A DNA stretch of 64,000 nucleotides from an uncultured Candidatus Saccharibacteria bacterium (GTDB taxonomy: Bacteria > Patescibacteriota > Minisyncoccia > Minisyncoccales > JAGGXC01): positions 69,312-133,311 of the forward strand of contig CAYUNN010000003.1 in the NCBI GenBank assembly GCA_964445905.1, read 5' to 3'. The stretch's first letter is position 1, and every line of letters starts with the position of its first letter. Shown here piece by piece: positions 33,258-61,768 of the stretch. Both the position numbers and the translations under genes were made by a program. The notes beneath the pieces are model-generated. The model worked only from the letters and a program-made list of their open reading frames with translations, was not told where the DNA came from and did no database searches.

Positions 33258-33644
33258 ATGATTACTAATAATAAAAAAGAAAGATTGACTCCGCAAAGGA
33301 AGATCATTATTGATTATTTAAAGAGTGTTAAAACCCATCCTACCGCCGAAGAGGTTTATTCGGCGGTAAAGAGGAAACTTCCCCGAATAAGCTTGGGAAC
33401 TATTTATCGTAATCTTCAAAAGCTAAAATGTTCTGGAGAGATTAGGGAGATTGATTGTAGAACGTGCGGAGTTACTCGTTACGACGGTAATATGTTTTCT
33501 CACGACCATTTTTTATGTGAGAAATGCAATAAGATATTTGATATTAAAAGGTCAGTTGATTTAAAAAATAAAATTAAAATAGGAAAAATTAAAAGTTACC
33601 AAATATATTTTTATGGAATTTGCAAAAAATGTTCAACAAAATAA
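33258..33644 (+). CDS. Fur-family transcriptional regulator (PerR-like peroxide regulon repressor)
   Basis: Winged-helix N-terminus (TPQRKIIIDYLKSVKTHPTAEEVYSAV...ISLGTIYRNLQKL). Metal sites HDHFLCEKC and CKKC. Sits at the head of the rubrerythrin/Dfx cluster. Confidence 0.8.
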   Translation: MITNNKKERLTPQRKIIIDYLKSVKTHPTAEEVYSAVKRKLPRISLGTIYRNLQKLKCSGEIREIDCRTCGVTRYDGNMFSHDHFLCEKCNKIFDIKRSVDLKNKIKIGKIKSYQIYFYGICKKCSTK

Positions 33645-33912
33645 AGCTTATTGTTATGATTGCAAGAAAAAAATTGAGATTAAAAACAATGAAGTCCAAA
33701 ACGGAGTCCTTCTTGGGTACAATGACAATGGAGAGAAATTAATGGTTTTTAAGTGCAATCAATGCTTTGCTAAGGATCCAAGCTTGAGCAAATTTAGGAA
33801 ATGCGAAGTTTATTCCAGGATAGTTGGTTATCTTAGGCCCATTAAGCAATGGAACAAAGGAAAGAAAAGAGAATTTGAGGAAAGAAAAAATTACGAGCAA
33901 AAAGAAGCTTAA
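33613..33912 (+). CDS. Standalone NrdD C-terminal domain homolog (zinc ribbon + glycyl-radical motif), 99 aa
   Basis: CYDCKKK...CNQC zinc ribbon, then ...CEVYSRIVGYLRPIKQWNKGKKREFEERK. This parallels the E. coli NrdD C-terminus ...TRRVCGYLGSPDARPFNAGKQEEVKRR (RxxGYL glycyl-radical site). Overlaps the Fur gene by 32 nt. Confidence 0.55.
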   Translation: MEFAKNVQQNKAYCYDCKKKIEIKNNEVQNGVLLGYNDNGEKLMVFKCNQCFAKDPSLSKFRKCEVYSRIVGYLRPIKQWNKGKKREFEERKNYEQKEA

Positions 33913-36077: not shown

Positions 36078-37775
36078 ATGAAAATCAGTTCTAAAAAATT
36101 CAGAAAACTTTTAGTAGATCCTGGCTTTGTAAACGAGAAAGATTTTGACATTGCCGAGAAAAAAGCAAAAGAAAGTGATAAAGATTTGGAAGAGGTTTTA
36201 ATAGGCAATGGTTTAATTTCTGACGAAGACTTAGGGAAAATTATTGCTGAAGAGCTTGATTTTCCTTTCATTGATTTAACAAAAGAAGGGGTCTCTGAAG
36301 AAGCATTTAAGATAATCCCCGAGCTTGTTGCTAAAGTGCAACAAGTTATTGTTTTTGATCGGGAAAGCCAAGAAGAAGGGGATGTTCTTAAGGTGGCTAT
36401 GGTTGATCCGTCTAACCATGACATGATTAACTGGCTGGAAAAGAAGACTGGAGATAGAGTTGAGGCCTACTATACCACCCCTTCTTCCATTAGAGATGCC
36501 CTCAAGTTCTATAAAAAAGAAATCAAAGAAGAGTTTGACGATATTATTAAAAGTCAGGTGATAGAGGCTCAAAAAAAAGAAGCCAAAGCAAAAGATGTCC
36601 CCGTCATCAAGATTGTTGATACCCTGATTAATTATGCTTATGAAAATAGAGCTTCTGATATTCATATTGAACCATTGGAAGGAGAAACAAGAGTAAGATT
36701 CAGGATAGATGGAATCTTGCATAATGTGGTTGATCTTCCTAGTAATATCCATAATTTAGTTGTTGCCCGAATAAAAGTTTTATCTAAATTGAGAACAGAT
36801 GAAAGATTTGCCTCTCAAGACGGAAAGTTCTCAGCTAGGTTCGACAAAGAAAAATTTGATATCCGGGTTTCAATAATACCGGTTACAGAAGGAGAAAAGG
36901 TGGTAATGAGATTATTGTCAGAAAGAATAAGAAAGTTTAGCTTAGACAATCTTGGTCTTATCGGTGAGAGTTTGAAAAAAGTTCAGTCCGCAGCGAAAAA
37001 ACCTTACGGAATGATTTTAGCGACAGGTCCAACTGGTTCCGGCAAGACAACCACTCTTTATAGTATTTTAAAGATTTTAAATAAGCCGGAAGTTAATATT
37101 TCTACCATTGAGGACCCTGTGGAATATGATATTCGAGGAGTAAATCAAATTCAGGTAAATCCTAAAAAGAATATTAATTTTATCAATGGTCTTCGCTCAA
37201 TAGTAAGACAGGATCCAGACATTATTATGGTGGGAGAAATAAGAGATTCTGAAACTGCCAATATTGCTATTAATGCTGCTATGACCGGACATTTAGTCCT
37301 TTCAACTATGCATGCTAATACAGCGGCTACTAATCTTCCTAGGTTGATTGATATGGAGATAGAGCCTTTTTTAGTTGCTTCCTCTGTTAACATAATCATT
37401 GCTCAAAGATTGGTGAGGAAAGTATGTACTCGTTGTAGGGAAAGCTATGAATTATCTAAGAAAAAGGCGATAGAAAAGAATTTTCCCGAACAAGTTATAG
37501 AGAAGGTATTTAAGAAAAAAGAAAAAGTAAGAGTTTTTCATGGAAAAGGATGCAAGGCTTGTGTCGGAACTGGTTTTTCTGGTCGAATAGGAATATTTGA
37601 AGTTTTAGAGATGACAGACAAGATTCAAAAACTAGTTATGGAAAAAGCCAATGCGGGGGAGATTAATCAAGCAGCAATCGGATATGGAATGATTACTATG
37701 CTTGATGACGGAATAGAAAAAGCTTTGCTTGGTTTTACTACAATTGGAGAAGTTCTTAGAGCTACAAAAACTTAG
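36078..37775 (+). CDS. pilB: Type IV pilus assembly ATPase PilB/GspE
   Basis: N-terminal T2SE_Nter-like domain, Walker A LATGPTGSGKTTTLYS, His/Asp boxes, tetracysteine CTRC...CKAC. Confidence 0.9.
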   Translation: MKISSKKFRKLLVDPGFVNEKDFDIAEKKAKESDKDLEEVLIGNGLISDEDLGKIIAEELDFPFIDLTKEGVSEEAFKIIPELVAKVQQVIVFDRESQEEGDVLKVAMVDPSNHDMINWLEKKTGDRVEAYYTTPSSIRDALKFYKKEIKEEFDDIIKSQVIEAQKKEAKAKDVPVIKIVDTLINYAYENRASDIHIEPLEGETRVRFRIDGILHNVVDLPSNIHNLVVARIKVLSKLRTDERFASQDGKFSARFDKEKFDIRVSIIPVTEGEKVVMRLLSERIRKFSLDNLGLIGESLKKVQSAAKKPYGMILATGPTGSGKTTTLYSILKILNKPEVNISTIEDPVEYDIRGVNQIQVNPKKNINFINGLRSIVRQDPDIIMVGEIRDSETANIAINAAMTGHLVLSTMHANTAATNLPRLIDMEIEPFLVASSVNIIIAQRLVRKVCTRCRESYELSKKKAIEKNFPEQVIEKVFKKKEKVRVFHGKGCKACVGTGFSGRIGIFEVLEMTDKIQKLVMEKANAGEINQAAIGYGMITMLDDGIEKALLGFTTIGEVLRATKT

Positions 37776-37780
37776 TAATT

Positions 37781-38995
37781 ATGAAATTTGACTATATTGC
37801 TCAAACAAAAGAGGGCGAGAGTAAAATAGGAGATATTAGCGCGTCAGATCTTCGGGAAGCGAAGGAAAAACTTTTAGAAAAAGATTTGATTTTGATTTCT
37901 GTTGAACAAGTTAGAAAAAAAAGATTTTACATTCCCCTTCCTTCCAGAGTTTCTCATTTAGACAAGCTTCTTTTCGCTCGTCACTTAAGGATGTTAATTA
38001 AAGCAGGGCTGCCTTTAAGGGAAGCGGTAGCAGAGATTAAAGATCAGGCTCAATCCAGGAAATTCAAGAAGGTATTGGAAGACGTTTTAGCTCAGCTGGA
38101 TAATGGAGAGTCTTTATCAAACAGCTTGGCTTCTCATCCAAAAGTTTTTGATGAACTTTCAGTAAGTTTAATCGAAATAGGAGAAGCAAGCGGTACGCTT
38201 GAGAGAAACCTCTCTTATTTAGCTGATCAATTAGAGAAAAAGCATGATTTAAGAATGAAAATAAAAGGAGCGATGATTTATCCGGTTATTGTTTTGTCTG
38301 CTACTTTTGGTTTAATTGCAATTTTAGCCGTATTTATTCTTCCCAAACTTCTTCCTTTATTCAGAAGCTTTGACATTGAGCTTCCTTTGCCGACAAAAAT
38401 ATTGCTCTTTTTCATTTCTGCAGGAGAAAGTTATGGTGCCTATATCGCCGTTTCAATAATTGCTTTTATTTTATTCATGTTTTTTATTTACCGTTTCAGA
38501 CCGGTGAAGTCTTTTTTCCACAGAATTATATTAAAACTTCCTGTTTTTGGAAAAATTACAAAAGAAGTTAATCTGGCTTACTTTTCCCGAACTCTTGGGA
38601 TACTTATAAAAAGCGGAGTTCCGATAGTTGAAGCTTTTGATATTACAAGTAAAAGTTTAAGTAATACTGTTTACCAGAAAGAAGTAGAAGGAGTTATTCC
38701 AACGATAAAGCAGGGAGGGCAGATAGCAGGATATTTTAAAGATAAACCTAAGATTTTTCCTTCCGTTTTTTCAAGAATGATAAGGGTAGGAGAAAGAACA
38801 GGAAAAATAGATGAATCATTGTCTTATCTTGCCAGTTTTTATGAAAAAAATGTTGATGACGCTACCAAGAACATTTCCTCAACTTTGGAGCCGGCTTTAT
38901 TGATATTTATTGGAATGATTATTGCTTTCATTGCCGTCTCTATTATCATGCCAATTTATGAAGCCACTCACGGCTTAAGTGGCTTAAGAAGATAA
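37781..38995 (+). CDS. pilC: Type IV pilus inner-membrane platform protein PilC/GspF
   Basis: Two GspF repeats, 3 TM, 404 aa. Adjacent to pilB. Confidence 0.88.
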   Translation: MKFDYIAQTKEGESKIGDISASDLREAKEKLLEKDLILISVEQVRKKRFYIPLPSRVSHLDKLLFARHLRMLIKAGLPLREAVAEIKDQAQSRKFKKVLEDVLAQLDNGESLSNSLASHPKVFDELSVSLIEIGEASGTLERNLSYLADQLEKKHDLRMKIKGAMIYPVIVLSATFGLIAILAVFILPKLLPLFRSFDIELPLPTKILLFFISAGESYGAYIAVSIIAFILFMFFIYRFRPVKSFFHRIILKLPVFGKITKEVNLAYFSRTLGILIKSGVPIVEAFDITSKSLSNTVYQKEVEGVIPTIKQGGQIAGYFKDKPKIFPSVFSRMIRVGERTGKIDESLSYLASFYEKNVDDATKNISSTLEPALLIFIGMIIAFIAVSIIMPIYEATHGLSGLRR

Positions 38996-39000
38996 ATATT

Positions 39001-39948
39001 ATGAGGGCATTTACTTTTATTGAGCTCTTAATTGTAATAGGTATTATTTCTGTTCTTTTACTTTTAACGATCCCATTAGGGATTGGTTTTTATAAAGGAC
39101 AGCAATTAGATAGTGTAGCCGAAGGAGTTCTTCAAAATTTAAGGAGAGCTCAACTAAGAGCTATGTCTCAGTCTGATTATGACTTCGGAGTTTATTTTGG
39201 TTCCGGAAACATCGAAGAATATATTCTTTTTCAGGGAGATTCCTATGCTAACGGTGAGAATGAAGAAGTATTTGATGTCCCCAAAGGAATTTATTTTAGC
39301 GGATTGGAAGAAGTGGTTTTTTCAAGAACTGCCGGAGAGCCTTTTTTGACAGGAGATATCAGCATAACCAATGAGATTTCAAATGTTATTATCAGTATTA
39401 ATAACTTAGGGAGAATAAGTTATGCTCCTCCTGAGCCTCCACCTCCCCAGGGCTGCTGGGGAACAGGAGGAGAATGTGATCCTCTTTGCCATTATACTGA
39501 TTACGGCATTCCGACAGCAGCTTATCGAGAACCAATCCCTCCCTGCAACAGAGAATGCAATCCAGCCAGAAATATATTTATTGATCCTTCAGGAGCGTGC
39601 AGAGATGACGGAACGGATAACTGCTACAAAATGACAGATCCAACAACCGGATACACTGAATGCATCCAGAGAGAATCATGCGAAGGAAGGTGTGAGGGGA
39701 TATGTACTCCTTGTCGAGAGATAATAGATCCTCAGGAATGCGAACAGCAAGAAGGGTGCAGAGCTATTTCATCTCCAGGAGTTTTTATATGTCGTGGAGA
39801 ATGTGTTTCTTGCGAGGAGTTTTCTGAAGGAGGAAACTGTTCCAATCAGCTGGGTTGCGGTTGGGATGCTACTGCCTGGTACTGGGAACTTGCCAGTCCC
39901 CAATCAGGCTACTTTAATTATGTAACTTGTGAATGGTATGAAGAATGA
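39001..39948 (+). CDS. Prepilin-type (pseudopilin/minor pilin) protein with C-terminal ~165-aa Cys-rich module, paralog 1
   Basis: MRAFTFIELLIVIGIISVLLL class-III signal. The C-terminal GCWGTGGECDPLCHY...CNRECNPAR...CEGRCEGICTPC...NCSNQLGCGWDATAWYWELASPQSGYFNYVTCEWYEE carries ~22 Cys. Confidence 0.8.
   Translation: MRAFTFIELLIVIGIISVLLLLTIPLGIGFYKGQQLDSVAEGVLQNLRRAQLRAMSQSDYDFGVYFGSGNIEEYILFQGDSYANGENEEVFDVPKGIYFSGLEEVVFSRTAGEPFLTGDISITNEISNVIISINNLGRISYAPPEPPPPQGCWGTGGECDPLCHYTDYGIPTAAYREPIPPCNRECNPARNIFIDPSGACRDDGTDNCYKMTDPTTGYTECIQRESCEGRCEGICTPCREIIDPQECEQQEGCRAISSPGVFICRGECVSCEEFSEGGNCSNQLGCGWDATAWYWELASPQSGYFNYVTCEWYEE
39451..39948 (+). repeat. Cys-rich-module nucleotide repeat, copy 1 (~498 bp)
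   Basis: Begins ggctgctggggaacaggaggagaatgtgat and ends gtaacttgtgaatggtatgaagaatga. Near-identical to the copies at 40361 and 41625. Confidence 0.85.
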
Positions 39949-40858
39949 AGGATTTACTTTAATTGAGTTAATAATATATATTGCTATTGTTTCATTGATT
40001 CTTATTCTGTCTAGTAATTTTGCTTGGGATATTATTCAGGGAAATGTTAAATCTAATTCTTCTCGAGAAGTACAACAAAATGCCCGCTTTGCAATGGAAA
40101 GAGTTTCCCGCAGTTTAAGAGAGGGAAATGATCCGCTTATTTTTAGTGTTGTCGATGGCGTTCTTTATGAAAGTGATGCCCCCTTAACTAGCGAACAGGT
40201 TAGGGTTGTTGATTTTAGTATTACTTCTGTCTCAAATACTTATAAGATTAGTTTAACTGTTGAGTATAATAATATTAGCGGGAGAAGAGAGTATGAAGCG
40301 GAATCAACCTTAGAGTCAACAATTGCTTTATTTTCAGGAGACATATCTCCACCTCCCGAGGGCTGCTGGGGAACAGGAGGAGAATGTGATCTTCTTTGCC
40401 ATTACGCTAATTACGGTATCCCGACAGCAGCTTATCGAGAACCAATTCCTCCCTGCAACAGAGAATGCAATCCAGCCAGAAATATATTTATTGATCCTTC
40501 AGGAGCGTGTAGTGATGATGGAACAGGCGATTGTTACAAGATGGCAGATTCAACAACCGGGCCTACCGAATGTATCCAGAGAGAATCATGCGAAGGGAGA
40601 TGCGAAGGAATATGTACTCCTTGTCGGGAGATTGTGGATCCTCAAGAATGCGAACAACAAGAAGGGTGCAGAATGATTGCAACTCCAGGAGGTTTTATGT
40701 GTCACGGAGAATGTATTGCCTGTGAAGAATTCCCTGATGAAGAAAACTGTTCCAATCAGCTGGGTTGCGGTTGGAACGCTACTGCCTGGTACTGGGAACT
40801 TGCCAGTCCCCAATCAGGCTACTTTAATTATGTAACTTGTGAATGGTATGAAGAATGA
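39938..40858 (+). CDS. Prepilin-type protein with the same C-terminal Cys-rich module, paralog 2
   Basis: ATG at 39938 gives MKNEG|FTLIELIIYIAIVSLILIL. The start is embedded in paralog 1's terminal ...gaatggtATGaagaaTGA. The track ORF begins earlier at an alternate GTG. Confidence 0.78.
   Translation: MKNEGFTLIELIIYIAIVSLILILSSNFAWDIIQGNVKSNSSREVQQNARFAMERVSRSLREGNDPLIFSVVDGVLYESDAPLTSEQVRVVDFSITSVSNTYKISLTVEYNNISGRREYEAESTLESTIALFSGDISPPPEGCWGTGGECDLLCHYANYGIPTAAYREPIPPCNRECNPARNIFIDPSGACSDDGTGDCYKMADSTTGPTECIQRESCEGRCEGICTPCREIVDPQECEQQEGCRMIATPGGFMCHGECIACEEFPDEENCSNQLGCGWNATAWYWELASPQSGYFNYVTCEWYEE
40361..40858 (+). repeat. Cys-rich-module nucleotide repeat, copy 2
   Basis: Same start and end strings as copy 1. 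Internal differences are clustered, e.g. RMIATPGGFMCHGECIACEEFPDEEN vs RAISSPGVFICRGECVSCEEFSEGGN. Confidence 0.85.
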
Positions 40859-42125
40859 GAGAGGACAATCTTTTATAGAACTGCTAATTGCTATGGGAAT
40901 TTTTGTTGCATTGATGTCTGCCGTTACTTTTCTCGTTCTTAATTCTCATATAAGCAACAGGATTGGTCAGGAAATTACTCTGGCCGATTATCTGGCTCAA
41001 GAGGGATTAGAAGCGGCAAAGTCAATAAGAGATAATAACTGGGATGATTTAACAGATGGATCTCATGGAATTGACATTTTTGATGATAGATGGATTTTCC
41101 AAGGAACAGAGAATGATTTAAGCGATAAACTTAACGATGGGAAAAGATCGATAGTCGTGGAAACAAAAAGTTCTGATGTTAAAAAAATTATTTCTTCCGT
41201 TGAATGGAAATTTACAGGAGGAAGAATTCAAAAAGTTGAACTGGTTAGTTATCTGACAAATTGGCAAAAAGAAACGTCGGGGATTACGGTTTTTTTCAGT
41301 TCAAGTGAATATTCAGTTTTAGAAAGTGCAGGTATTTTTACTGCTGAAGTCAATCTTTCCGAGGCATACGAAGGTGAAATTACTGTAAGATATAGAACAG
41401 AAAATGGAAGCGCTGTTTCCCCGGATGATTATTTGAAAGCTGATGATATTTTAGTTTTTGATCCCGGGGTTATTTCCCAAACTTTTGACATAGAGATTGT
41501 GGATAACTTATTAGAAGAGTCGGATAAATATTTTAGCCTGATCCTTTATGGTCCTCAAAATGCTATGCTTGGATCTCCCAGTATGGCAACGATAGTAATT
41601 ATTGACGATGATGGTCCTCCCCAGGGCTGCTGGGGAACAGGAGGAGAATGTGATCTTCTTTGCCATTATACTGATTACGGCATTCCGACAGCAGCTTATC
41701 GAGAACCAATCCCTCCCTGCAACAGAGAATGCAATCCAGCCAGAGATATCTTTGTCAATCCTTCAGGAGCGTGCAGAGATGACGGAACGGATAACTGCTA
41801 CAAAATGATAGATTCAACAACCGGATACACTGAATGCATCCAGAGAGAATCATGCGAAGGAAGGTGTGAGGGGATATGTACTCCTTGCGAAGAAATTATA
41901 GACCCAAGAGAATGCGAACAGCAAGAAGGGTGCAGAGGATTTAATGTTCCAGGAGGAGGTTTTAGATGTTTGGGCAGATGCGTTGTTTGTGGAGAGTTTC
42001 CCGACGAAGGAAACTGTTCCAATCAGTTAGGTTGTTGGTGGGATGCTACTGCCTGGTATTGGGAACTTGCCAGTCCCCAATCAGGCTACTTTAATTATGT
42101 AACTTGTGAATGGTATGAAGAATGA
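40848..42125 (+). CDS. Prepilin-type protein with Calx-beta-like domain + the same Cys-rich module, paralog 3
   Basis: MKNERGQSFIELLIAMGIFVALMSAV class-III signal. Calx-beta-like ...YRTENGSAVSPDDYLKADDILVFDPGVISQTFDIEIVDN... The C-terminal module ends ...CEWYEE. Confidence 0.78.
   Translation: MKNERGQSFIELLIAMGIFVALMSAVTFLVLNSHISNRIGQEITLADYLAQEGLEAAKSIRDNNWDDLTDGSHGIDIFDDRWIFQGTENDLSDKLNDGKRSIVVETKSSDVKKIISSVEWKFTGGRIQKVELVSYLTNWQKETSGITVFFSSSEYSVLESAGIFTAEVNLSEAYEGEITVRYRTENGSAVSPDDYLKADDILVFDPGVISQTFDIEIVDNLLEESDKYFSLILYGPQNAMLGSPSMATIVIIDDDGPPQGCWGTGGECDLLCHYTDYGIPTAAYREPIPPCNRECNPARDIFVNPSGACRDDGTDNCYKMIDSTTGYTECIQRESCEGRCEGICTPCEEIIDPRECEQQEGCRGFNVPGGGFRCLGRCVVCGEFPDEGNCSNQLGCWWDATAWYWELASPQSGYFNYVTCEWYEE
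41625..42125 (+). repeat. Cys-rich-module nucleotide repeat, copy 3 (~501 bp)
   Basis: Same start and end strings. One extra codon (GGGF). Confidence 0.85.
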
Positions 42126-42519
42126 GAATCAAAAAAATGGATACATTGCTTTAGTTTCTGTCCTTATTATTTCTTCAATTACCTTATTTTTAGCAATTAA
42201 TGCTAATTTATTTGGTATTTCAGAATCAGGAATGGCTTTGAGGAAAAGCCATTCTTCCAAGTCTTTTTATCTGGCTAATCTTTGCGCTGAAGACGCTTTA
42301 ATGAAGTTAAAAAATAATTTGGATTATTCCGGAGATGAAACATTGAGTCTTGACGGAGGAAGCTGCTATATTTCTTCACTTGAAGGAAGCGGCAATGAAG
42401 ATAGGATAATTAAAACAAGCGGAAACTTCAATGATCAGACAAGAAGGATTATAATAGAAATAGGCAGGGTTAATCCTTTAATGGAAATTAGTTCATGGAG
42501 AGAAGTATCGAGTTTTTAA
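42115..42519 (+). CDS. Prepilin-like small protein (no Cys module)
   Basis: MKNENQKNGYIALVSVLIISSITLFLAINA hydrophobic N-terminus. The start again overlaps the preceding CEWYEE* terminus. Confidence 0.55.
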   Translation: MKNENQKNGYIALVSVLIISSITLFLAINANLFGISESGMALRKSHSSKSFYLANLCAEDALMKLKNNLDYSGDETLSLDGGSCYISSLEGSGNEDRIIKTSGNFNDQTRRIIIEIGRVNPLMEISSWREVSSF

Positions 42520-42531
42520 TGAAATATAATT

Positions 42532-44028
42532 ATGTTCCGCGGAAATAAAATTTTTGGCATAGATATAAGTGATTTTTCGATAGAAATTTTACAGCTCAAT
42601 TCTAGAAAAAAACCAATGGCATTTGGCAGAATTGTTATTGAAGAAGGAATTGTAAGAGATGGGTTTGTTTTGAAAAAAGAAGAATTGAAAAAGAAAATAG
42701 AAAAAGTCGTTTCTAAATCAAGGGTTCGAGGAAACAAGGTTATCTTGTCTTTGCCCGAATCAAAAGTTTTTACCAGTCTTTTTAGTATTCCCGGAGAAAT
42801 CAAAGGAGACAGGCTTAAAGAAGCAATTGAGAATGAAGCTAGAAAAACTATTCCCATTGAGTCTTCAAAAATATACTGGGATTGGCAGGTAGTTTTTACG
42901 GATCCCAAGAGCAATCAGCAGTTAATACTTTACGTTGGAACATTAAAAGAAATCATTGATGATTATCTTGATATTTTCAAAGACCTGGGAATAGAAATTA
43001 TTGCTTTTGAATTAGATTCTGTTGCTCTAGCCCGGGCCTTACTGGTAAAAAATAAACCAAGAAATGGAGTGCTGATTATGGATATCGGGGCTCGGGTGAC
43101 CGATATTAGTATTTTTGACAAAGATATTATCCTAAAAGATTCCAATGTAGTCTCTGTGGGAGGGGATTATTTAACCAAAATATTAGCGGAAAAATTAAAA
43201 ATATCAGAAGAAAAAGCAGAAAGAGCCAAAAGGAAGTTTGGCGTGGATGGAGAGAACGAAAAAGTGAGCAAAATTTTAAAAGAAGAATTAGAACCTGTTA
43301 TTGAAAGAACGAATAAATCAGTCAGTTATTACAGGGGAAAATTAGATGGGGCATTTTTAGCTGGAGGATCAGCTCAGATTCCTGGCTTGTCCAGTTATTT
43401 TGCTTCTAAAATAAACCTTAATACCAGTATTGGTGTTTCTCCTCTTCTAGCTCAAATCAAAGAAGGTTCGGTTCTTTTTAATACCGTAGCAGGATTAGCC
43501 TTGAGAGGAATAGAAAAAGATCCTAAAAAAGCAGGCGTGAATCTTCTGCCTAAAAAAGAAAAGAGAACCAGTTTAGTTAGTCAGGAAACAAGCAAAAAGA
43601 ATTATTTCCGGGTCTTGGCTATTATAATAGGAATAATCGGTTTTGTTTTTCTTAGCTGGGTAATTTATAAATTTATTATTGAACCTCTTGATCAAAAACC
43701 AAAACCTCCTCCCTTATTAGAGGAAGTACCTGTGGCCACCGGCACAGAAGAAGAAGTTCAACCAGAGCCAGAGCCGGAGCCGGAGCTAGAACCGGAAGTG
43801 GAAGTAGAAGAAATAGAAGTCGTTATTATTTTGGAAACAGAAGAAGGTTGGATTGATGTAAGACAGGGGCCTGATGATAACTATCCTTCTGTAGCCAGAA
43901 TTAATGCCGGGGATAGTTTTCCACTATTGGCTGAATTTGATAATTGGTATAGAATAGAATTAACAGACGGTACTACTGGTTGGGTTTCTGGTAAAAGTGT
44001 TATAATAGAAAAACAATCTACCAACTAA
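42532..44028 (+). CDS. PilM-like actin-fold ATPase fused to PilN-like TM segment and C-terminal bacterial SH3 (SH3b) domain
   Basis: N-terminal FGIDISDFSIEILQL and a second actin-like subdomain. A TM helix YFRVLAIIIGIIGFVFLSWVIY. A Pro/Glu-rich linker PEPEPEPELEPE. SH3b-like GWIDVRQGPDDNYPSVARINAGDSFPLLAEFDNWYRIELTDGTTGWVSGKSV. Confidence 0.72.
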   Translation: MFRGNKIFGIDISDFSIEILQLNSRKKPMAFGRIVIEEGIVRDGFVLKKEELKKKIEKVVSKSRVRGNKVILSLPESKVFTSLFSIPGEIKGDRLKEAIENEARKTIPIESSKIYWDWQVVFTDPKSNQQLILYVGTLKEIIDDYLDIFKDLGIEIIAFELDSVALARALLVKNKPRNGVLIMDIGARVTDISIFDKDIILKDSNVVSVGGDYLTKILAEKLKISEEKAERAKRKFGVDGENEKVSKILKEELEPVIERTNKSVSYYRGKLDGAFLAGGSAQIPGLSSYFASKINLNTSIGVSPLLAQIKEGSVLFNTVAGLALRGIEKDPKKAGVNLLPKKEKRTSLVSQETSKKNYFRVLAIIIGIIGFVFLSWVIYKFIIEPLDQKPKPPPLLEEVPVATGTEEEVQPEPEPEPELEPEVEVEEIEVVIILETEEGWIDVRQGPDDNYPSVARINAGDSFPLLAEFDNWYRIELTDGTTGWVSGKSVIIEKQSTN

Positions 44029-44066
44029 AAAAAGGTCAAAATAATATTTATTTAAATAAAAAGGTT

Positions 44067-44507
44067 ATGTTTAAATCAGAAAAGGGTTTTACTTTAATTG
44101 AAATTCTTTTAGTAATTGGTTTAATTGCAATTTTAGCTGCAATAGTAATTATTGCTATTAATCCTGCTCGTCAGTTTGCCCAGGCAAGGAACACTCAGAG
44201 ATCCAGTGATGTTAATGCTATTCTAAATGCTGTTCATCAAAATATGGTTGAAAACCAAGGAGTTTGGACATGTTCTGAAGATATTCCTACCACCTCTACA
44301 GGTATAAAGGCTACTGGCACCGATATTTATAGTTGCTTGGTAGATACTTATTTGGCTGAATTGCCTTTGGATCCGGTAGAAGGATATTTTACTAGCGAAA
44401 CTGATTATGATTCCGGCTATGAAATTATGCAGAGCGGAACAACCGGCAGAGTAACAGTGTCTGCTCCCGAAGCTGAGCTTGGTGAAACAATCAGTGTTAC
44501 CAGATAA
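44067..44507 (+). CDS. Type IV pilin (PilA-like major pilin candidate)
   Basis: MFKSEKG|FTLIEILLVIGLIAILAAIVIIAINPARQFAQARNTQRSSDVNAILNA, a canonical class-III signal plus alpha1 helix. Confidence 0.8.
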   Translation: MFKSEKGFTLIEILLVIGLIAILAAIVIIAINPARQFAQARNTQRSSDVNAILNAVHQNMVENQGVWTCSEDIPTTSTGIKATGTDIYSCLVDTYLAELPLDPVEGYFTSETDYDSGYEIMQSGTTGRVTVSAPEAELGETISVTR

Positions 44508-44608
44508 TTTTTTAAAATAGATTAATTGTGAAGCATAAGGTTCGGAAGTTTTTCTTTCGGGCCTTTTATGTTAAAATGTATTAACCTATTAATTTTTTGA
44601 TTATTTAA

Positions 44609-45316
44609 ATGATAAAGAGAAAACAAAAAAGAACTAAAATATCAGATCCTGGTTCTGTACTGGCTCATCAATTAAAAAATCCCATCTCTGTTCTTAATGG
44701 TTATCTTGAGGTTTTACTTTCTGAGGAGATAGGAGAGATTAATAAAAAACAAAAAGAATATCTTTCCGATGCGATAGAAAACGTTAAAACTATGAGCAGA
44801 ACGGTTAATGACCTTCTTGATGTTTCTAAGATTGAAGAAGGTTATTATAAATTAAACCCAAAAAATATTAATTTGGCAGAAGTTGTTCAAGGGGTGATTG
44901 ACGAACTTTCTCCCTGGATTAAAGCGTCTAATGTAAATATTAATTTTGAAAAGCCGAAAGATATTAAAGTTTTTGCTGACCCGTTAAAGATTAGATACGT
45001 AGTAGAAAATTTAATTTCTAATTCCGTAAGGTACAAGGGACCAGGAGTGAGTTTTGTTCGGATAGAACTTAATAAGAAAAATGAAAAAGTTATTTTCTCT
45101 TGCGAAGATAACGGAATAGGAATTCCTAAAAAAGACTTTGATAAAGTTTTTTCCAAGTATTACAGGTCAGAAGAAGCGCTTAATTTTTATCCTTCCGGAA
45201 CAGGGCTCGGCCTTTATATCAGCAGGGCAATAGTTGAGCTTAGCGATGGGAAGATTTGGTTTGAGAAGAATAAAAACAAAGGAATAACTTTTTATTTTAC
45301 TTTGCCTTCTGCTTAA
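44609..45316 (+). CDS. Cytoplasmic sensor histidine kinase (HisKA + HATPase_c)
   Basis: H-box LAHQLKNPISVL. N, G1 (EDNGIGI) and G2 (GTGLGL) boxes. No TM segment. Confidence 0.8.
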   Translation: MIKRKQKRTKISDPGSVLAHQLKNPISVLNGYLEVLLSEEIGEINKKQKEYLSDAIENVKTMSRTVNDLLDVSKIEEGYYKLNPKNINLAEVVQGVIDELSPWIKASNVNINFEKPKDIKVFADPLKIRYVVENLISNSVRYKGPGVSFVRIELNKKNEKVIFSCEDNGIGIPKKDFDKVFSKYYRSEEALNFYPSGTGLGLYISRAIVELSDGKIWFEKNKNKGITFYFTLPSA

Positions 45317-45328
45317 TTTCTTATAACC

Positions 45329-45715
45329 ATGGGGAAAAAAACTGAAGAAAAAAGAAAGAAAATATTGATGGTTGAGGATAATATCTTTTTAAGAAAACTT
45401 TATAGAGACAAATTAACTCGGGCTGACTTTGCGTTTGTTGAAGCAACCAACGGAGTGGAAGGGATTAATAAAATTGTTTTTGAAAAACCTGATCTAGTCC
45501 TACTTGACTTAATCTTGCCGGGAAAGAATGGTTTTGATGTCCTATCGGAGATTAAAAGCAAGCCGGAAGTTAAAAATATTCCGGTGATAATCTTATCTAA
45601 CTTGTCCCAGGAAGCGGACATTAAAGAAGCAATGAGCCTTGGAGCAAAAGATTATTTAGTTAAAACAGAAGTGAGATTGTCTGAGGTCGTAGATAAGATT
45701 AAAAAGATTATTTAA
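45329..45715 (+). CDS. Single-domain response regulator (CheY-like receiver)
   Basis: ILMVEDN...DLVLLDLILPGKNGFDV...SNLS...K receiver signature. Confidence 0.8.
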   Translation: MGKKTEEKRKKILMVEDNIFLRKLYRDKLTRADFAFVEATNGVEGINKIVFEKPDLVLLDLILPGKNGFDVLSEIKSKPEVKNIPVIILSNLSQEADIKEAMSLGAKDYLVKTEVRLSEVVDKIKKII

Positions 45716-46157
45716 AAAATTAATAATTGTTGCCTGTGGAAAACTTAGGGAAAACTTAGAGGATAATTTTCCCTTGACTTATTTTCTGAAATATAATAAA
45801 TTGCTTACTACAAAGGTTAATTACATAAGATTGGAGGGATTGAACAGTGTGATCAATTTATCTTATTATTTGTTAAAATTTAATATTGAAAAAGGGAGTG
45901 TTGGTTCGCTATTGTGTGCGAATTTTTGTTTTCTTGATCTTTAGATAAAGCGTGAGCTTTGTCTTTTTATTTTTTAGAAGGACAAAGCTTGGACTTTATA
46001 TGTCCAAAAGATTAAAAAATTAAAGGTCGATAGAAGGGTAATTCTCTCTAGATTCTTTAGGGGGAGACGAGCGCTTAGGTCACGAAGAGACCTAGGGCAA
46101 AATTACTCTTTGAAAATGTAAAAAAGGTTAAAAATAATTATTAAATCTTTAATATAT

Positions 46158-47472
46158 ATGAACAAAAAAATTATATTAAGTTTAAGCGTAATTGGTATCG
46201 TTGCAGCTATCGTTGTTGGCGGAACCGTTGCTTACTTCAGTGATACTGAAGTTAGCGAAGGCAATATCTTTACTGCCGGGACAATCAGTTACGCACTGGG
46301 TTGATGTTGAGAATAAAAGCTCTGAAATTCAGCCAATAGGAGTTGAGGTGATTGATTATTCTTCCTGTATTAGCGATTGTTTTTCCGAACAATTAGAATT
46401 AACAATTAGCAATGGTTCAGCAAGCTATACAGCATCTTTAGATGAATTCTTTACTGCGGGAAATATAAAACTTTCTGATTTAGCGGCTGGAAATACAACG
46501 AGATACTACTTTACTGTAACTTTCCTGCCAGAGTCCGGTAATAAATATCAGGAAAAAACAGTTAATTTTGATTTTAAGATTGGATCCCTGGGCAAAGAAT
46601 CTATTGGCGGTGAAATGGGCGGAGGAGAAACAGGTAATGGAGAAACAAGCGGAGACGGGGGTGGAGGATTCTTCATAACCGGTTTAACGATTTTTGAAGA
46701 AGCAGCTTCAGGCGTTGAAGAAAATGAAGTAATTATCAGTTGGAGAACAAATAAGTTTGCAACTAGCAGGGTAATTTATTCTTCAGAAAATCAATCTCAC
46801 ACTTTATTATTAGATAGTCCGCCGAATTATGGTTATTATGACTCAACTGAAGAAGATTCAACACCTAAAACAGTTCATCAAATGACTATTAGCGGATTAG
46901 AGCCAGAAACAACTTATTATTTTAGATGTGTTTCCCGGGGCTCTTTGGCGGTTAGCAAAGAACTTAGTTTTACTACTTCAAAGGCGGGAGACGAGAAAAT
47001 TGTTTTTCAGCCAATAGATTTTGAATCACCTTCAAGTCCTGATAGCCCTTCAAGTCCTGATAGTCCATCATCGATTTCTGGTATTTACGGTCAAGGAACT
47101 GGAGAAGAGGGCGATTCGGAAGAGGAGCTATCATTAGAAGAATATGAGGGTGTTGACGAAAAAGATGAAGGGTTTGGTAGCGCATTTTTAGCAACAATCG
47201 GTAAATTTTTTAACTCTGATAATTTCTGCTGGATTTTCTTTCTTCTTATAGTGGTATTAGTTATCGTATCTCTTATGTCAGAAAAGAAAGCTAAGGGAAA
47301 GAAAAAATGGATTCTGCTCCTTGTTATCATTTTAATGATCATTGCATATTATTTTTTATGCGGTTTTCTTTATTGGATTTTTATTATTGCCGCGATTACT
47401 TTGTTTATCTATCCTTTTATTAGAAAAGCAAAACTTTTAATTAAAAAAATAAAAAACAGAGAAAATCAGTAA
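46158..47472 (+). pseudogene. TasA/camelysin-like (SipW-cognate signal) FN3-domain surface protein with a +1 frameshift near 46285-46300
   Basis: The ATG at 46158 gives MNKKIILSLSVIGIVAAIVVGGTVAYFSDTEVSEGNIFTAGT... (TasA/CalY-type N-terminus), ending at an in-frame TGA at 46302-46304. The protein continues in the +1 frame (track ORF 46192..47472). The +1-frame body carries the FN3-like VIISWRTNKFATSRVIYSS...YYFRCVS, SPSSPDSPSSPDSPSS repeats and C-terminal TM helices. Confidence 0.5.
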
Positions 47473-47577
47473 AGAAAATTAAAATTCAAGGTATTTAGAA
47501 TGCTTTACAGCATTTTTTTATTTGTTTTTTTTATTTTAATAATTTATAATTAAGTAATAATTAATAATAATTATTTT

Positions 47578-47955
47578 ATGGAAAAGAAAACTAAAATTTT
47601 AATGATTGAAGACGATCCCTTTTTCGGCAGACTATGCAGCAAGGCTTTGGAAGATGAAGGATATGATGTAGAAATAGCTCCTGACGGAGAAACAGGTTTA
47701 AATATAATAGAAAGGGTAGATCCTGATTTAATCCTTTTAGATATTATTCTTCCCAGAATGAATGGTTTTGAAGTATTGAAGAATATAAGGGAACATGAGA
47801 ATGAAAAAGTGGCTAATAAGAAAGTTATTATTTTGTCTAATCTTTACGCTAAAGAAGAAGAAGAGAAAGGAGAGAAATTAAGAGCCCAGGATTATTTAAT
47901 TAAAGCTAATGTTACTTCCGATGATTTATTAGAAAAAATTAAAAAAGTTCTGTAG
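47578..47955 (+). CDS. Single-domain response regulator (receiver)
   Basis: ILMIEDDPFF...DLILLDIILPRMNGFEV... Confidence 0.75.
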   Translation: MEKKTKILMIEDDPFFGRLCSKALEDEGYDVEIAPDGETGLNIIERVDPDLILLDIILPRMNGFEVLKNIREHENEKVANKKVIILSNLYAKEEEEKGEKLRAQDYLIKANVTSDDLLEKIKKVL

Positions 47956-48020
47956 TTTTTTCAAAAAAAGAAAGCTCTTAACCCGGATAAAATTATCCGG
48001 GTTTTGTGTTAAAATGAAAG

Positions 48021-48884
48021 ATGATTTTGAAATTCTTAAAAAGAATTGCTCCTTTTATCTTGGGGGTTTTATTATTGGCTAACATTCTAGCTTGGCTTAC
48101 CGTTTATGAATTATCTCAACCTCAAATTCTTAAGATTTCTTTTTTTGATGTAGGCCAGGGAGACAGTATTTTTATCCAAACTCCTCAGGGCCACCAAGTT
48201 TTAATTGATGGGGGTCCTGATTCTACTGTTTTAGAAAAATTAGGCCAAGAGATGCCTTTTTGGGATAGAGATATTGATTTAATAATCCTTACCCATCCTG
48301 ACCATGATCATATCGCCGGGCTAATAGAAGTATTAAAGGTTTACGAAGTAGATAATATTTTATGGACGGGCGTCGCGGGGAATACCCAGCAATACGGAGA
48401 ATGGGAAAGGTGTCTTGAAGAGGAAAATGCTAGTATAATAATAGCTGAAAGCGGTCAAAAGATTATAATGGGAGATGTTTATTTTGAAGTGATTTATCCT
48501 TTTGAAAACTTAGAAGGAGAAGAAGTTAAAAACATTAATGATACTTCTGTCGTCGGCCGCCTGGTTTTTAAAAACAATTCTTTCTTTTTCACCGGGGATA
48601 TTTCTAAATCGGCAGAGAGGAAGATTGTTGAGAGCGGAGCTGAAATAAAATCAGACGTGTTAAAAGTAAGCCACCATGGGAGTAAAACATCTACTGCCGA
48701 AGAATTTGTTTTTAGTGTTTCTCCCGACTTAGCAGTTATCCAGGTAGGCAGAGATAACTCCTATGGGCATCCTTATCAGGAAGTCTTGGATACTTTAGAT
48801 AATTATGGTATAAAAATCCTAAGGACTGATATCCATGGAGACATTGAAATTTTAAGTGACGGTTTAAATTATGTTATAAAGTAA
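48021..48884 (+). CDS. ComEC/Rec2-related metallo-beta-lactamase-fold protein (membrane-anchored)
   Basis: N-terminal TM, then ISFFDVGQGDSIFIQTP...ILTHPDHDHIAGL (HxHxDH), as in the ComEC C-terminal MBL domain. Confidence 0.65.
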   Translation: MILKFLKRIAPFILGVLLLANILAWLTVYELSQPQILKISFFDVGQGDSIFIQTPQGHQVLIDGGPDSTVLEKLGQEMPFWDRDIDLIILTHPDHDHIAGLIEVLKVYEVDNILWTGVAGNTQQYGEWERCLEEENASIIIAESGQKIIMGDVYFEVIYPFENLEGEEVKNINDTSVVGRLVFKNNSFFFTGDISKSAERKIVESGAEIKSDVLKVSHHGSKTSTAEEFVFSVSPDLAVIQVGRDNSYGHPYQEVLDTLDNYGIKILRTDIHGDIEILSDGLNYVIK

Positions 48885-48902
48885 TTTTTTTATTTTAAAA
48901 CT

Positions 48903-49964
48903 ATGGAATTTCCAATTTTTAAGACAAAAATGGAGGGTGTGGATAAAAGTTTTGATTTAACTAATCCGCAAGAACGAAAAGAATATTTTGAACTCAAAAC
49001 AGGGCCTGAGATAAAAAAGATTAAGAAATATTTAGAGAACAACAGTTTTATTGTTTACTTGTTAGGGAAAAAGAATTCTGGCAAGGGGACTTATGCGAAG
49101 ATGTTCGGTGAGATTGTTGGCTCTGATAAGGTTGCTCATGTCTCAATTGGAGATGTTGTAAGAGAAGTTCATGAAAATATTCTTTCCAGCGAAGAAGAAA
49201 AAGAAAAAATAGTGGGTTGGCTTAGAGAAAACTACAGAGGATATCTGTCAATGGATGAAATTATAAATTCTCTGTTAAATAGAAGTACAAAAACTCTGTT
49301 GCCCACAGAGTTTATTTTAGCTCTAGTTAAAAGAGAAATAGACAAGATGCCCAAGAAGTCTCTTTTTATTGATGGGTTTCCAAGAGATCTAGATCAAATA
49401 TCTTATTCCTTATTTTTTAGAGATTTAATTGATCACAGAAAAGATCCGGATATTTTTGTTTTAATCAGTGTTCCTGAAAATGTAATTAATGAAAGGATAA
49501 AGTGGAGAAGAATTTGCCCTTCTTGTAAGACCTCCAGGAACTTGAAGCTTCTTCCTACATCAAAGGTAGGACATAAAGAAGATAGATTTTATTTAATTTG
49601 CGATAATCCGGAATGTGAGAGCAAGAGAATGATAGCCAAAGAAGGGGATGAACAAGGGATAGGTCCGATAAGAGCTCGCTTAGACAAAGACGAAGAATTA
49701 ATTAAAAAAGCCATCTCTTTGCATGGCATTCCTAAAATTCTTTTAAGAAATTCAGTTTCGGTGGAAAAAGCAAATGAATGTATTGATGATTACGAAATTA
49801 CTCCAGAATATAGTTATAATTTAAAAGAAAATGGAGAAATAGAGATTATTAAAAAACCTTGGGAGATAGATAATGATCAAGGCATTCCTTCTTATAGCTT
49901 AATGCCTCCTCCTGTTGTTGTTTCAATGATAAAACAAATGGTAGAAGCGCTTAGAATTGACTGA
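48903..49964 (+). CDS. Adenylate-kinase-family protein with N-terminal extension and Zn-LID
   Basis: P-loop GKKNSGKGTYA, H.S.GD..R motif (HVSIGDVVRE), LIDGFPR motif, and a LID with CPSCKTS...CDNPEC. Confidence 0.55.
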   Translation: MEFPIFKTKMEGVDKSFDLTNPQERKEYFELKTGPEIKKIKKYLENNSFIVYLLGKKNSGKGTYAKMFGEIVGSDKVAHVSIGDVVREVHENILSSEEEKEKIVGWLRENYRGYLSMDEIINSLLNRSTKTLLPTEFILALVKREIDKMPKKSLFIDGFPRDLDQISYSLFFRDLIDHRKDPDIFVLISVPENVINERIKWRRICPSCKTSRNLKLLPTSKVGHKEDRFYLICDNPECESKRMIAKEGDEQGIGPIRARLDKDEELIKKAISLHGIPKILLRNSVSVEKANECIDDYEITPEYSYNLKENGEIEIIKKPWEIDNDQGIPSYSLMPPPVVVSMIKQMVEALRID

Positions 49965-57178: not shown

Positions 57179-57760
57179 ATGAAATTTATTCTTGGAAAAA
57201 AATTAGAAATGAGTCAGATATTTGGAAAAGAAGGGGAAGCAATCCCGGTGACTTTGGTTGAAGCGGGACCTTGCGAGATTGTTCAGGTAAAAACAGAAGA
57301 AAAAGATGGTTACTCTGCTGTTCAGATTGGTTTTGAGAAATCAAAAAAGAAAAAGAAAACAATGAAAGGAAAAGAATATGTTCATATTAGGGAGTTTAAG
57401 AATGGAAATGATCTTAAAAAAGGAGATAAAATTGATATTTCTATCTTTAAAGAAGGAGATAATGTAAAAATTTCTGGTGTGTCAAAAGGAAAAGGATTTC
57501 AAGGAGGAGTAAAAAGATGGGGATTTAGCGGAAGAAATGCTACTCATGGTACGAAGCATGAAGAAAGAACGCTAGGCTCTATCGGATCTGCTTTTCCGCA
57601 AAGAGTTCTTAAAGGAAAGAAAATGCCTGGCAGGACTGGTTTCGAAAGAATTACTGTTAAAAATTTAAAAATAGTTAAGGTTAATTCTGATAATAATATA
57701 TTAGCAATAAAAGGAGCGGTTCCGGGAAGGAAAGGAACCTTGCTTGAAATTAGAGGATAA
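57179..57760 (+). CDS. rplC: 50S ribosomal protein L3
   Basis: Conserved L3 sequence (GKKLEMSQIF...VTLVEAGPC...). Confidence 0.92.
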   Translation: MKFILGKKLEMSQIFGKEGEAIPVTLVEAGPCEIVQVKTEEKDGYSAVQIGFEKSKKKKKTMKGKEYVHIREFKNGNDLKKGDKIDISIFKEGDNVKISGVSKGKGFQGGVKRWGFSGRNATHGTKHEERTLGSIGSAFPQRVLKGKKMPGRTGFERITVKNLKIVKVNSDNNILAIKGAVPGRKGTLLEIRG

Positions 57761-57767
57761 TCCAATC

Positions 57768-58397
57768 ATGAAAGTCCCAGTTTACAACAAAGATGGTAAG
57801 AAAATTGAAGATATTACTTTGCCCAAAGAGCTATTTGGAGTTTCGATAAACTCTGATTTAGTTCATCAGGTTGCTGTTATTCAGATGTCAAACAGAAGAC
57901 AGGGAACCGCACATGCTAAAGATCGAGGTGAGGTCAGCGGTGGAGGAAAAAAGCCTTGGGCTCAAAAGGGAACTGGCAGGGCAAGGCACGGCTCTACCCG
58001 ATCTCCTATTTGGGTTGGCGGAGGGGTGACCTTTGGTCCCACCAAAAATAGAAATTTCAAGAAATCAGTTTCCAAAAAGATAAGAAGAAAAGCTTTGCTT
58101 ATGGTTCTTTCTGCTAAAGCAAAAGAAAAATTATTGATTGTTTTAGATAAGTTTGATTTAGAAAAGATAAAAACTAAAGAATTCAATAATATTTTGAATA
58201 ATCTTCCTTGCGAAAAGAAAAGTTGTTTGTTTGTTTTACCGGAAGCAACAAAGGAATTAGTTCTGTCAGCTAGAAATATTGATGGCATTGAAACGATGGA
58301 AGCAAGGAATTTGAATCCTTTGGATTTGCTTTCTTTTAAATATTTAATAATATCTAAAGATTCTATTAATATCATTAAGGATACTTTTTTGAAATAA
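57768..58397 (+). CDS. rplD: 50S ribosomal protein L4
   Basis: MKVPVYNKDGKK... The start is at the internal Met of the track ORF. Confidence 0.9.
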   Translation: MKVPVYNKDGKKIEDITLPKELFGVSINSDLVHQVAVIQMSNRRQGTAHAKDRGEVSGGGKKPWAQKGTGRARHGSTRSPIWVGGGVTFGPTKNRNFKKSVSKKIRRKALLMVLSAKAKEKLLIVLDKFDLEKIKTKEFNNILNNLPCEKKSCLFVLPEATKELVLSARNIDGIETMEARNLNPLDLLSFKYLIISKDSINIIKDTFLK

Positions 58398-58403
58398 ATA
58401 GCT

Positions 58404-58808: not shown

Positions 58809-58815
58809 TTTATTT

Positions 58816-59643: not shown

Positions 59644-59648
59644 AATTT

Positions 59649-59948: not shown

Positions 59949-59968
59949 GTAATTTCTTTATTATAATT

Positions 59969-60496: not shown

Positions 60497-60498
60497 AT

Positions 60499-61146: not shown

Positions 61147-61157
61147 ATAATTTTAAA

Positions 61158-61756: not shown

Positions 61757-61768
61757 CATATTAACATT

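Follow-up and report, generated by a model that had tools for sequence, protein, structure and literature searches.

A probable Patescibacteria type IV pilus locus with one cysteine-rich module repeated on three minor pilins

Type IV pili (T4P) are the best-supported host-attachment organelle of the Candidate Phyla Radiation (CPR), and are essential in the one species that is genetically tractable. In Saccharibacteria (T4P1 and T4P2 of Southlakia epibionticum, and TM7i) they serve host attachment and twitching motility and cannot be dispensed with (PMC10633639, PMC9894109), and pilT is present in their T4P clusters (PMC9894109). Here we describe a pilus locus in a 64-kb stretch of contig CAYUNN010000003.1 (the window), which has around 33% G+C and carries nearly all its genes on the plus strand. 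The core pilus unit (36078-45715) is made of pilB, pilC, three minor pilin genes (mp1 to mp3), a small PilX-like pilin gene, a PilM fusion, the major pilin gene, a histidine kinase gene and a receiver gene. The probable product of the locus is a T4aP-like pilus belonging to a Patescibacteria (CPR) bacterium, with a shared Cys-rich module acting as an adhesin at its tip and with kinase/CheY regulation. As a whole it is a typical secretin-less CPR pilus cluster, of a known kind and not a new kind of system; what is new is the triplicated, gene-converted and previously undescribed Cys module within modular pilins, and its occurrence on archaeal filament proteins.

The locus resembles the saccharibacterial T4P in the absence of a secretin, in lineage and in its likely episymbiotic use. 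It differs from them in that pilT, which lies in their cluster, was found neither in this window nor within 10 kb of pilB in the nearest relatives, in that PilM is fused to a PilN-type segment and an SH3b domain, in that three minor pilins carry a near-identical Cys module, and in that a kinase/CheY pair is attached. The second precedent is that of the modular type IV pilins, defined by Raynaud et al. in 2021 in a catalogue that already holds CPR examples (PMC8179133). In these proteins (PilB with its vWA module and PilC with its lectin module in Streptococcus sanguinis, CofB/TcpB, ComZ, GspK), the N-terminal pilin module is small and has a class III signal peptide, and the bulky C-terminal module that follows is displayed at the tip of the filament. 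The same architecture was found in mp1 to mp3, each consisting of an N-terminal pilin module and an extra C-terminal module that is not specific to pilus biogenesis. Unlike the modules described so far, however, the one found here is without a match among Pfam families, PDB sequences and PDB folds, and whereas a single subunit carries the module in S. sanguinis, and one homotrimeric subunit in CofB, here it is present on three minor pilins and homogenised by gene conversion.

The Cys module and its three carriers

The first minor pilin gene, mp1 (39001..39948, + strand), encodes a protein with the leader MRA/FTFIE (the slash marks the cleavage site), a pilin module and a Cys-rich module (39436-39945). 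Its matches to N_methyl and to ComGD/GspH-like families are weak, with 16.6 bits for N_methyl against a cut-off of 21.2, whereas mp2, mp3 and the major pilin reach the Pfam cut-off. The ATG of mp2 (39938..40858, +; leader MKNEG/FTLIE; N_methyl E 8.8e-6) lies within the last codons of mp1, in an open reading frame (ORF) that is open from a GTG at 39929, and this gene is further supported by a JGI gene call and by the alignment of the junction. In mp3 (40848..42125, +, ORF from 40839; leader MKNERG/QSFIE; N_methyl 4.8e-5) the pilin module is followed by a Calx-beta domain (5e-22) and then by the Cys-rich module. A small fourth minor pilin of 134-137 aa (42115..42519, +, ORF from 42106) starts with MKNENQKNG/YIALV, lacks Glu5 and has no Pfam or NCBIfam match, its assignment resting on position and N-terminus. 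This position is conserved in seven related loci (L007-L009, L021, L088, L089, L091; 25-63% identity), and the protein sits where a PilX/GspK-like tip subunit would be expected, so that we refer to it as PilX-like.

The pilin modules of mp1 to mp3 are mutually unrelated, and each has its own orthologue among the minor pilins of related loci (44-57% identity; for that of mp1, in L089 and L090). The initial annotation had listed three pseudopilins with Cys-rich tips; these are indeed present, but it had overlooked that the three tips are a single, near-identical repeated module. At the DNA level, the copies are around 510 nt long (39437..39948, 40347-40858 and 41611-42125, all +), were detected as repeat families D1/D2 with 86-93% identity, and show 84-91% pairwise nucleotide identity. 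The three copies do not differ at all in their final 49 nt, which finish exactly at the TGA stop; this end holds the overlapping ATG-AAG-AAT-GA start of the next gene, in such a way that mp2, mp3 and the small pilin all start with MKNE.

Identity among the copies is distributed as a mosaic, with blocks of 100% identity between particular pairs and a segment of 60-73% identity at nt 331-390. Synonymous divergence (dS) is 0.23-0.62 and dN/dS 0.17-0.36, so the copies evolve under purifying selection, although dN is 5-9 times higher in codons 108-135. Positive selection on this variable patch was considered and rejected, as omega is 0.3-0.6 there in spite of the raised dN. Between genomes the module is far more divergent, with 60-70% nucleotide and 41-59% amino acid identity (41-50% at the protein level between related genomes and the window copies), whereas two copies within L090 are 92% identical in DNA. 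The carriers also vary from genome to genome: only the mp2 orthologue in L089, mp1 and mp3 in L090, and mp3 in L091. Near-identity within a genome, divergence between genomes and mosaic identity indicate gene conversion, and the within-genome likeness combined with differing carriers is the signature of intralocus gene conversion and domain spread.

Could the three-fold module be an assembly artefact, or a very recent duplication without functional meaning? Three metagenome contigs (L003, L005, L006) break inside mp1, and a fourth, L002, joins the mp1 pilin module to an mp3-type Cys module at a junction that lies inside an 88-nt exact repeat. But a 117-kb JGI contig with no more than 3 differences from the window in 20,539 positions has the three copies too, and these copies differ among themselves by 9-16%, which together with their dS and purifying selection excludes that they are collapsed or duplicated reads. 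Moreover, the copies form in-frame fusions with three different pilin modules, each of which has orthologues in relatives, and a second lineage (L090) has at least two modular minor pilins with the 92% identical modules mentioned above. We thus regard this explanation as extremely improbable. The chimeric gene of L002 (12924-13874; JGI 3300077564, another sample) is followed by the small pilin gene, two genes being skipped; it may be a real recombinant that arose through a two-gene deletion or an assembly mis-join through the exact repeat, and it was set aside as evidence of recombination.

The Cys module is around 170 aa long, and 20 Cys are conserved across 12 aligned pilin-borne copies (19 invariant and one nearly so); when two more divergent relatives are added, 15 remain invariant and five nearly invariant. 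Several W/Y residues are also conserved, with the consensus CWGxGGxCDxxCxY...DGTGxCYKM...CxGxCTxC...CxxQxGCxW...TxWxWNL...GYSSYTxCxWY, and the module is acidic (isoelectric point, pI, about 4.2; 28 D+E versus 10 K+R). An AlphaFold2 model built from 13 sequences is fairly confident (mean pLDDT 85.9, pTM 0.63) and includes long beta-hairpins. There was no credible match to the module in Pfam at E <= 10 and none in NCBIfam; its profile returned nothing among PDB sequences at E <= 1, and a fold search with the model gave no match at E <= 0.001 in PDB or BFVD. A word-indexed homologue search with the isolated module also returned nothing, owing to the limits of the index.

By contrast, an exhaustive HMMER search against 1.84 billion representative proteins yielded 34 matches, mostly minor pilins. 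The 10 matches below 1e-30 are all bacterial-type minor pilins, some of them with Calx-beta or a duplicated module, and the weaker ones include minor pilins with just a sub-repeat of about 25 aa (CxGTCTxC...QxGCxW). Seven matching proteins have archaeal-type N-termini, such as MNNKAQSALEYLL..., and two of these could be located (L092, 10001-20933, and L093, 10001-22034). In both cases the protein is encoded by the first gene of an archaeal type IV filament operon, which ends in one T2SSE ATPase and two T2SSF proteins and has KaiC-like ATPases and a receiver upstream; it is large, has an archaeal-type signal peptide and carries a Cys module split by an inserted domain. One of the loci lies on a 618-kb contig with 25% G+C that encodes eIF-1A, RIO1 and Topo VI A/B, so it comes from an archaeon. 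The archaeal class III signal-peptide family was not detected in the Pfam scan of the archaeal homologues, and the assignment of this signal peptide rests on the N-terminal sequences, the marker genes and the T2SSE/T2SSF operon context.

The module is most likely a tip adhesin module, by analogy with described modular pilins. Pointers to ligand binding, both indirect, are the Calx-beta domain of mp3 and, in one archaeal member (P0014; L092), a ConA-like lectin domain. That type IV filament operons of archaea begin with a gene carrying the same module suggests an exchange of adhesion modules across domains. A wider proposal, which we put forward as possible but doubtful, is that the module is a previously undescribed fold and a shared "tip cassette" of type IV filaments in ultrasmall bacteria (CPR) and in archaea with archaeal-type pilin signal peptides. 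In this lineage it would have spread to all three core minor pilins and been kept near-identical by gene conversion, so that the tip forms a pseudo-homotrimeric adhesin in which one patch is hypervariable. That both domains have the module would then be due to horizontal transfer of modules for host or surface recognition among episymbiont-type organisms sharing anoxic habitats.

A rare and well-defined tip module of this kind is a concrete candidate recognition element for uncultured Patescibacteria, usable as bait for their hosts or ligands. Three tip subunits kept identical by gene conversion are also an arrangement undescribed for minor-pilin complexes, and one that bears on how tip complexes are built, possibly with pseudo-trimeric display.

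The pilus machine, its lineage and its regulation

All genes listed in the initial annotation were found in place with Pfam and NCBIfam. PilB, the extension ATPase (36078..37775, +, 565 aa), has an MshEN/GSPII N-domain and a T2SSE core (Pfam T2SSE E 5.7e-126, MshEN 2.5e-11). With NCBIfam models it scores 540 bits for type_IV_pilB, 523 for GspE and, on the core only, 244 for ComGA; as the equivalog cut-off of the first is 675, it is a divergent member of the PilB group. The platform protein PilC (37781..38995, +, 404 aa) has two Pfam T2SSF domains (E 1.2e-57). The major pilin (44067..44507, +, 146 aa; MFKSEKG/FTLIE; N_methyl 2.3e-6) has a GspG-like globular part, aligning with positions 1-132 of the 134 of TIGR01710 gspG at E 2.3e-9, under the cut-off of that model, and orthologues with 37-64% identity occupy the same position in relatives.

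The gene at 42532..44028 (+) encodes a PilM fusion (PilM_2 E 2.9e-32, TIGR01175 pilM 1.3e-34, SH3_3 2e-11) in which the actin-like PilM part is followed by GVNLLPKKEK, one transmembrane (TM) helix, a Pro/Glu-rich linker and an extracytoplasmic SH3b domain. We take NLLP to be the PilN-type motif. The protein had been described as a PilM-PilN-SH3b fusion, and PilM, the NLLP motif, the TM helix and SH3b were confirmed, but the periplasmic PilN domain is missing: the PilN/PilO periplasmic domains are replaced by SH3b, and just the NLLP motif and the TM helix remain from PilN. The same fusion is carried by L088.

From pilB to the pilin gene, genes overlap or are at most 39 nt apart, and the pilin gene is followed by a terminator-like hairpin (44537..44565, +, 12 pairs and then a T-rich tail), detected by a consensus scan only. 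The order pilB-pilC-minor pilins-small pilin-(pilM)-pilin recurs in the metagenome-assembled genomes (MAGs) of relatives (L007, L009, L011, L014, L021, L088-L091), these being loci with Patescibacteria titles or close synteny, so the comparison with CPR pilus loci that had been proposed supports the assignment. Two observations concern these proteins: the N-terminus of PilB (36078-36250) has, besides MshEN, a sub-threshold match to the MshE-type c-di-GMP-binding motif NF053729 (23 bits, cut-off 38), and a second GspG/PilA-like prepilin gene (19656-20129, +; MLNKRKG/FTLIELL...), 32% identical to the major pilin, lies 16 kb upstream of pilB and is interrupted by an in-frame TAG at 19827-19829.

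The alignment of the major pilin over the whole GspG model (E 2.3e-9) brings in another system, a type II secretion system (T2SS)-like pseudopilus that would work as a piston to secrete proteins instead of forming a long surface pilus. PilB also scores nearly as well on GspE as on PilB models, and there are four minor (pseudo)pilins, as many as in the GspH-I-J-K set. However, the GspG and GspE matches all fall under the curated cut-offs, neither GspC/D/L/M genes nor a secretin were found, and PilM is a T4P component. In addition, a secretin-less cell without an outer membrane has no periplasm-to-outside step to drive, the bulky C-terminal modules on three minor pilins fit an exposed tip, and pili have been seen on CPR cells (PMC9894109). 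A pseudopilus is therefore very unlikely. Assignment of the minor pilins to the GspH/I/J/K classes was not feasible, since the full-length model of mp2, in which a beta-sheet comes after a long helix at the N-terminus, has low confidence (pLDDT 66, pTM 0.33) and returned only noise in the PDB fold search.

The nearest PilB relatives found in a scan of genome collections (51-62% identity) carry the titles Levyibacteriota, Roizmanbacteria, Magasanikbacteria, WWE3 or "Patescibacteria group", and a second group among them is formed by syntenic MAGs with the automated titles Gammaproteobacteria, Pseudomonadales or Bdellovibrionales; PilB of other lineages that were returned (Bacillota, Thermodesulfobacteriota, Verrucomicrobiota and others) shows at most 48% identity. 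The ribosomal operon downstream of the window has the order S8-L6-L18-S5-L15-SecY-Adk-Map, and only 6 nt separate S5 and L15, leaving no L30 between them. The absence of L30 is a CPR hallmark. Both lines of evidence support a Patescibacteria-like lineage. A secretin is not expected in Patescibacteria, so a secretin-less pilus is what this lineage predicts.

The locus had been annotated as lacking PilT, PilD and secretin. Indeed, a six-frame search of the whole window with the PilB core returned PilB alone, with no second T2SSE ATPase that could be PilT, and neither Peptidase_A24 (PilD) nor Secretin was found in Pfam scans of all window ORFs of at least 100 aa but nine; these nine lie in the ribosomal-protein operon at 57744-63275, and six of them are ribosomal proteins by gene calls. 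The following 9 kb or so downstream of the window hold ribosomal and housekeeping genes, without pilus genes or Peptidase_A24, and the upstream extension covers only about 0.6 kb. The lack of PilT and PilD thus applies to the window only: a class III cleavage site is present in all the pilins, which requires a prepilin peptidase gene in another part of the genome, and pilT probably lies there too.

The kinase (44609..45316, +, 235 aa; HisKA 6.6e-15, HATPase_c 1.8e-24) is soluble and consists of DHp and CA domains only, with no TM helix or sensor. It is followed by RR1 (45329..45715, +; Response_reg 9e-23), a CheY-like single-domain response regulator. In L088 an orthologue of the kinase gene (63% identity) comes behind the pilin gene, and in L089 one (45%) is placed between pilB and pilC, in both cases followed by an RR1 orthologue (73% and 55% identical, respectively). 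Besides the window, kinase or receiver genes are found in or beside T4P genes in seven of the 20 Patescibacteria-type related loci (L010, L012, L013, L014, L024, L088 and L089); a kinase and/or a receiver gene abuts pilB in L010, L013, L014 and L024, and in L012 they are 1.4 kb from it. The same contact with pilB is seen in two Omnitrophota loci. This recurrence inside or beside pilus clusters bears out the suggestion that signalling is integrated in the locus. A second CheY-like receiver, RR2 (47578..47955, +; Response_reg 4e-22), is 42% identical to RR1 and is followed by a terminator-like hairpin (47980-48003, consensus scan); its link to the pilus is uncertain.

A histidine kinase and single-domain receivers genetically linked to pilB and pilC recall PilG/PilH of the Chp system and PilS-PilR. 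Unlike these, the present set has no CheA/CheW/MCP, no DNA-binding output domain and no kinase sensor or TM helix, and its linkage to the pilus is by synteny only. As the receivers lack an output domain, they would most naturally regulate the motor by direct protein contact.

Altogether, the locus would work as follows. PilB would power assembly on the PilC platform, and a PilM ring would be tethered through the fused PilN-type NLLP/TM segment to the external SH3b domain, which probably anchors the machine in the cell wall or peptidoglycan, replacing the PilNOPQ alignment complex and the secretin. The four minor pilins (mp1, mp2, mp3 and the PilX-like cap) would prime the filament and remain at its tip, and the 146-aa pilin would form the shaft. 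The tip would thus show, through its modular pilins, three nearly identical acidic modules of around 170 aa, most likely the adhesin for a host or surface ligand. Gene conversion among the three genes would keep these modules alike except for the patch at codons 108-135, which may tune specificity. The sensor-less kinase and at least one CheY-like receiver would regulate the motor through protein-protein contact.

Several points weigh against this picture. The machine is incomplete as seen, with PilT, PilD and the PilN/O periplasmic domains missing from the window, and the taxonomic assignment has two supports, the PilB relatives and the absence of L30. Confidence in the full-length mp2 model is low (pLDDT 66), the small fourth pilin is without support from hidden Markov models, and the kinase lacks a sensor domain. 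We infer both the tip location of the Cys modules and their binding of a ligand, and the Cys might instead bind metal, since many disulfides in one domain would be hard to explain in a strict anaerobe for which no Dsb system is in view.

The ComEC-type gene and the DNA-uptake question

ComEC/Rec2 proteins have an OB-fold (DUF4131), a Competence channel domain and a C-terminal metallo-beta-lactamase (MBL) nuclease domain. A stand-alone gene for the last of these, encoding a membrane-anchored protein of 287 aa, lies downstream of the pilus genes (48021..48884, +). It matches Lactamase_B and positions 421-663 of TIGR00361 ComEC_Rec2 (E 1.4e-40), its best PDB matches are ComEC structures (E 1e-40 to 1e-36), and it has THPDHDH as its HxDxDH-type motif. 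An N-terminal TM helix would place the homologous nuclease domain outside the membrane. Unlike ComEC/Rec2, it lacks the OB-fold and the channel domain, and its conserved partner is an adenylate-kinase-like (ADK-like) gene instead of pilus or com genes. That the gene is a ComEC-like MBL without the channel region, as had been proposed, agrees with our scans, in which only Lactamase_B families were matched and the Competence domain was not found. A split ComEC, with the channel gene beside the MBL gene, was considered and discarded, as there is no adjacent ORF with a Competence domain here or in L099/L100.

The partner gene (48903..49964, +, 353 aa; ADK 4e-12), unnamed in the initial annotation, is a paralogue, since the spc operon further downstream contains the canonical adk gene (229 aa). 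All six of the closest metagenomic MBL relatives for which downstream sequence is available (L098-L103, 52-62% identity) have the ADK-like gene immediately 3' of the MBL gene, and M50-rpsL then follows in the three contigs that extend far enough (L098, L099, L101). Conversely, no pilus genes were found in the 6 kb upstream of the MBL gene in L099 and L102, and no MBL gene within 10 kb at the T4P loci of relatives.

The initial annotation had spoken of a competence-like locus with integrated DNA uptake, that is, of a Com-like pilus working with the ComEC-type MBL nuclease and capturing and processing extracellular DNA for transformation or nucleotide scavenging. The MBL gene, homologous to the ComEC nuclease, is indeed on the same strand and 3.5 kb downstream, PilT is missing from the window as it is from ComG systems, CPR lack nucleotide synthesis, and Saccharibacteria are naturally competent via ComEC (PMC10633639). 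But the term competence-like does not fit a PilB that is a long T4aP/GspE-type ATPase, not ComGA-like (540 bits for PilB versus 244 for ComGA), and the matches to ComGC/GD/GE/GF are weak and far under cut-off. Integrated DNA uptake is likewise unsupported, because the MBL gene pairs with the ADK-like gene (in the six relatives above) and with M50-rpsL and not with pilus genes, from which three terminator-like hairpins and a frameshifted gene separate it. Neither a Competence domain nor ComEA, DprA or ComFC was found in the window. With a pI of about 4.1-4.2, both the major pilin and the tip modules are strongly acidic, a property that speaks against DNA binding, and the essentiality of T4P in S. 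epibionticum is independent of comEC.

A competence pilus is therefore unlikely, and we retain the reading of an attachment pilus; of the monoderm, episymbiont-style pilus for attachment and DNA uptake that had been proposed, the secretin-less machine and the Patescibacteria-like lineage stand, and the link to DNA uptake does not. By synteny, the MBL gene is a neighbour and not a pilus component, the apparent link being a coincidence of neighbourhood. More speculatively, the MBL and ADK-like proteins may form a pair for extracellular DNA degradation and nucleotide salvage.

Other genes of the window

Between RR1 and RR2 lies a gene for a TasA-like/fn3 surface protein with C-terminal TM anchors (46158..47472, +; Pur_ac_phosph_N/fn3), which is probably not part of the machine. 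Its SipW/TasA-type signal peptide (MNKKIILSLSVIGIVAAIVVGGTVAYFSDTEVSEGNIFTAGT; ..GGTVAYFSDTE..) is in a separate 48-aa ORF (46158-46304), and the body (46192-47472) is read in another frame, which means that the gene is frameshifted; the identical frameshift is present in the independent JGI contig L001, which differs from the window at 3 of 20,539 positions. The description as a TasA-like surface protein is thus right as to the SipW-type signal peptide, although this is not contiguous with the body. Neither a Peptidase_M73 match nor a gene for a SipW-type signal peptidase was found in the window, although a Peptidase_S26 gene does lie nearby in the related locus L088. A further surface protein of 1422 aa with SdrD_B/SpaA-like and VWA domains is encoded at 28868-33136 (+), and the C-terminal regions of both proteins, made of fn3, an acidic linker and a TM anchor, are 33% identical, so they share an anchoring module.

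A scan of the whole window with Rfam detected tRNA-Pro only, with nothing in the 443-nt gap at 45716-46157. The start of the window (1-11400) carries the type I restriction-modification genes HsdM, HsdS and HsdR beside small HTH/RepL-like genes, with hypothetical ORFs on the opposite strand and a negative GC skew, and could be a mobile or integrated element. Finally, the gene at 33613-33912 (+) encodes a 99-aa protein that corresponds to the C-terminal end of NrdD only, with a CxxC...CxxC zinc ribbon and RIVGYLRP as its glycyl-radical motif. Its gene starts within the end of a Fur-family gene and is succeeded by genes for hemerythrin, rubrerythrin and desulfoferrodoxin. This protein might be a GrcA/YfiD-like "spare part" radical domain for an oxygen-damaged anaerobic ribonucleotide reductase.

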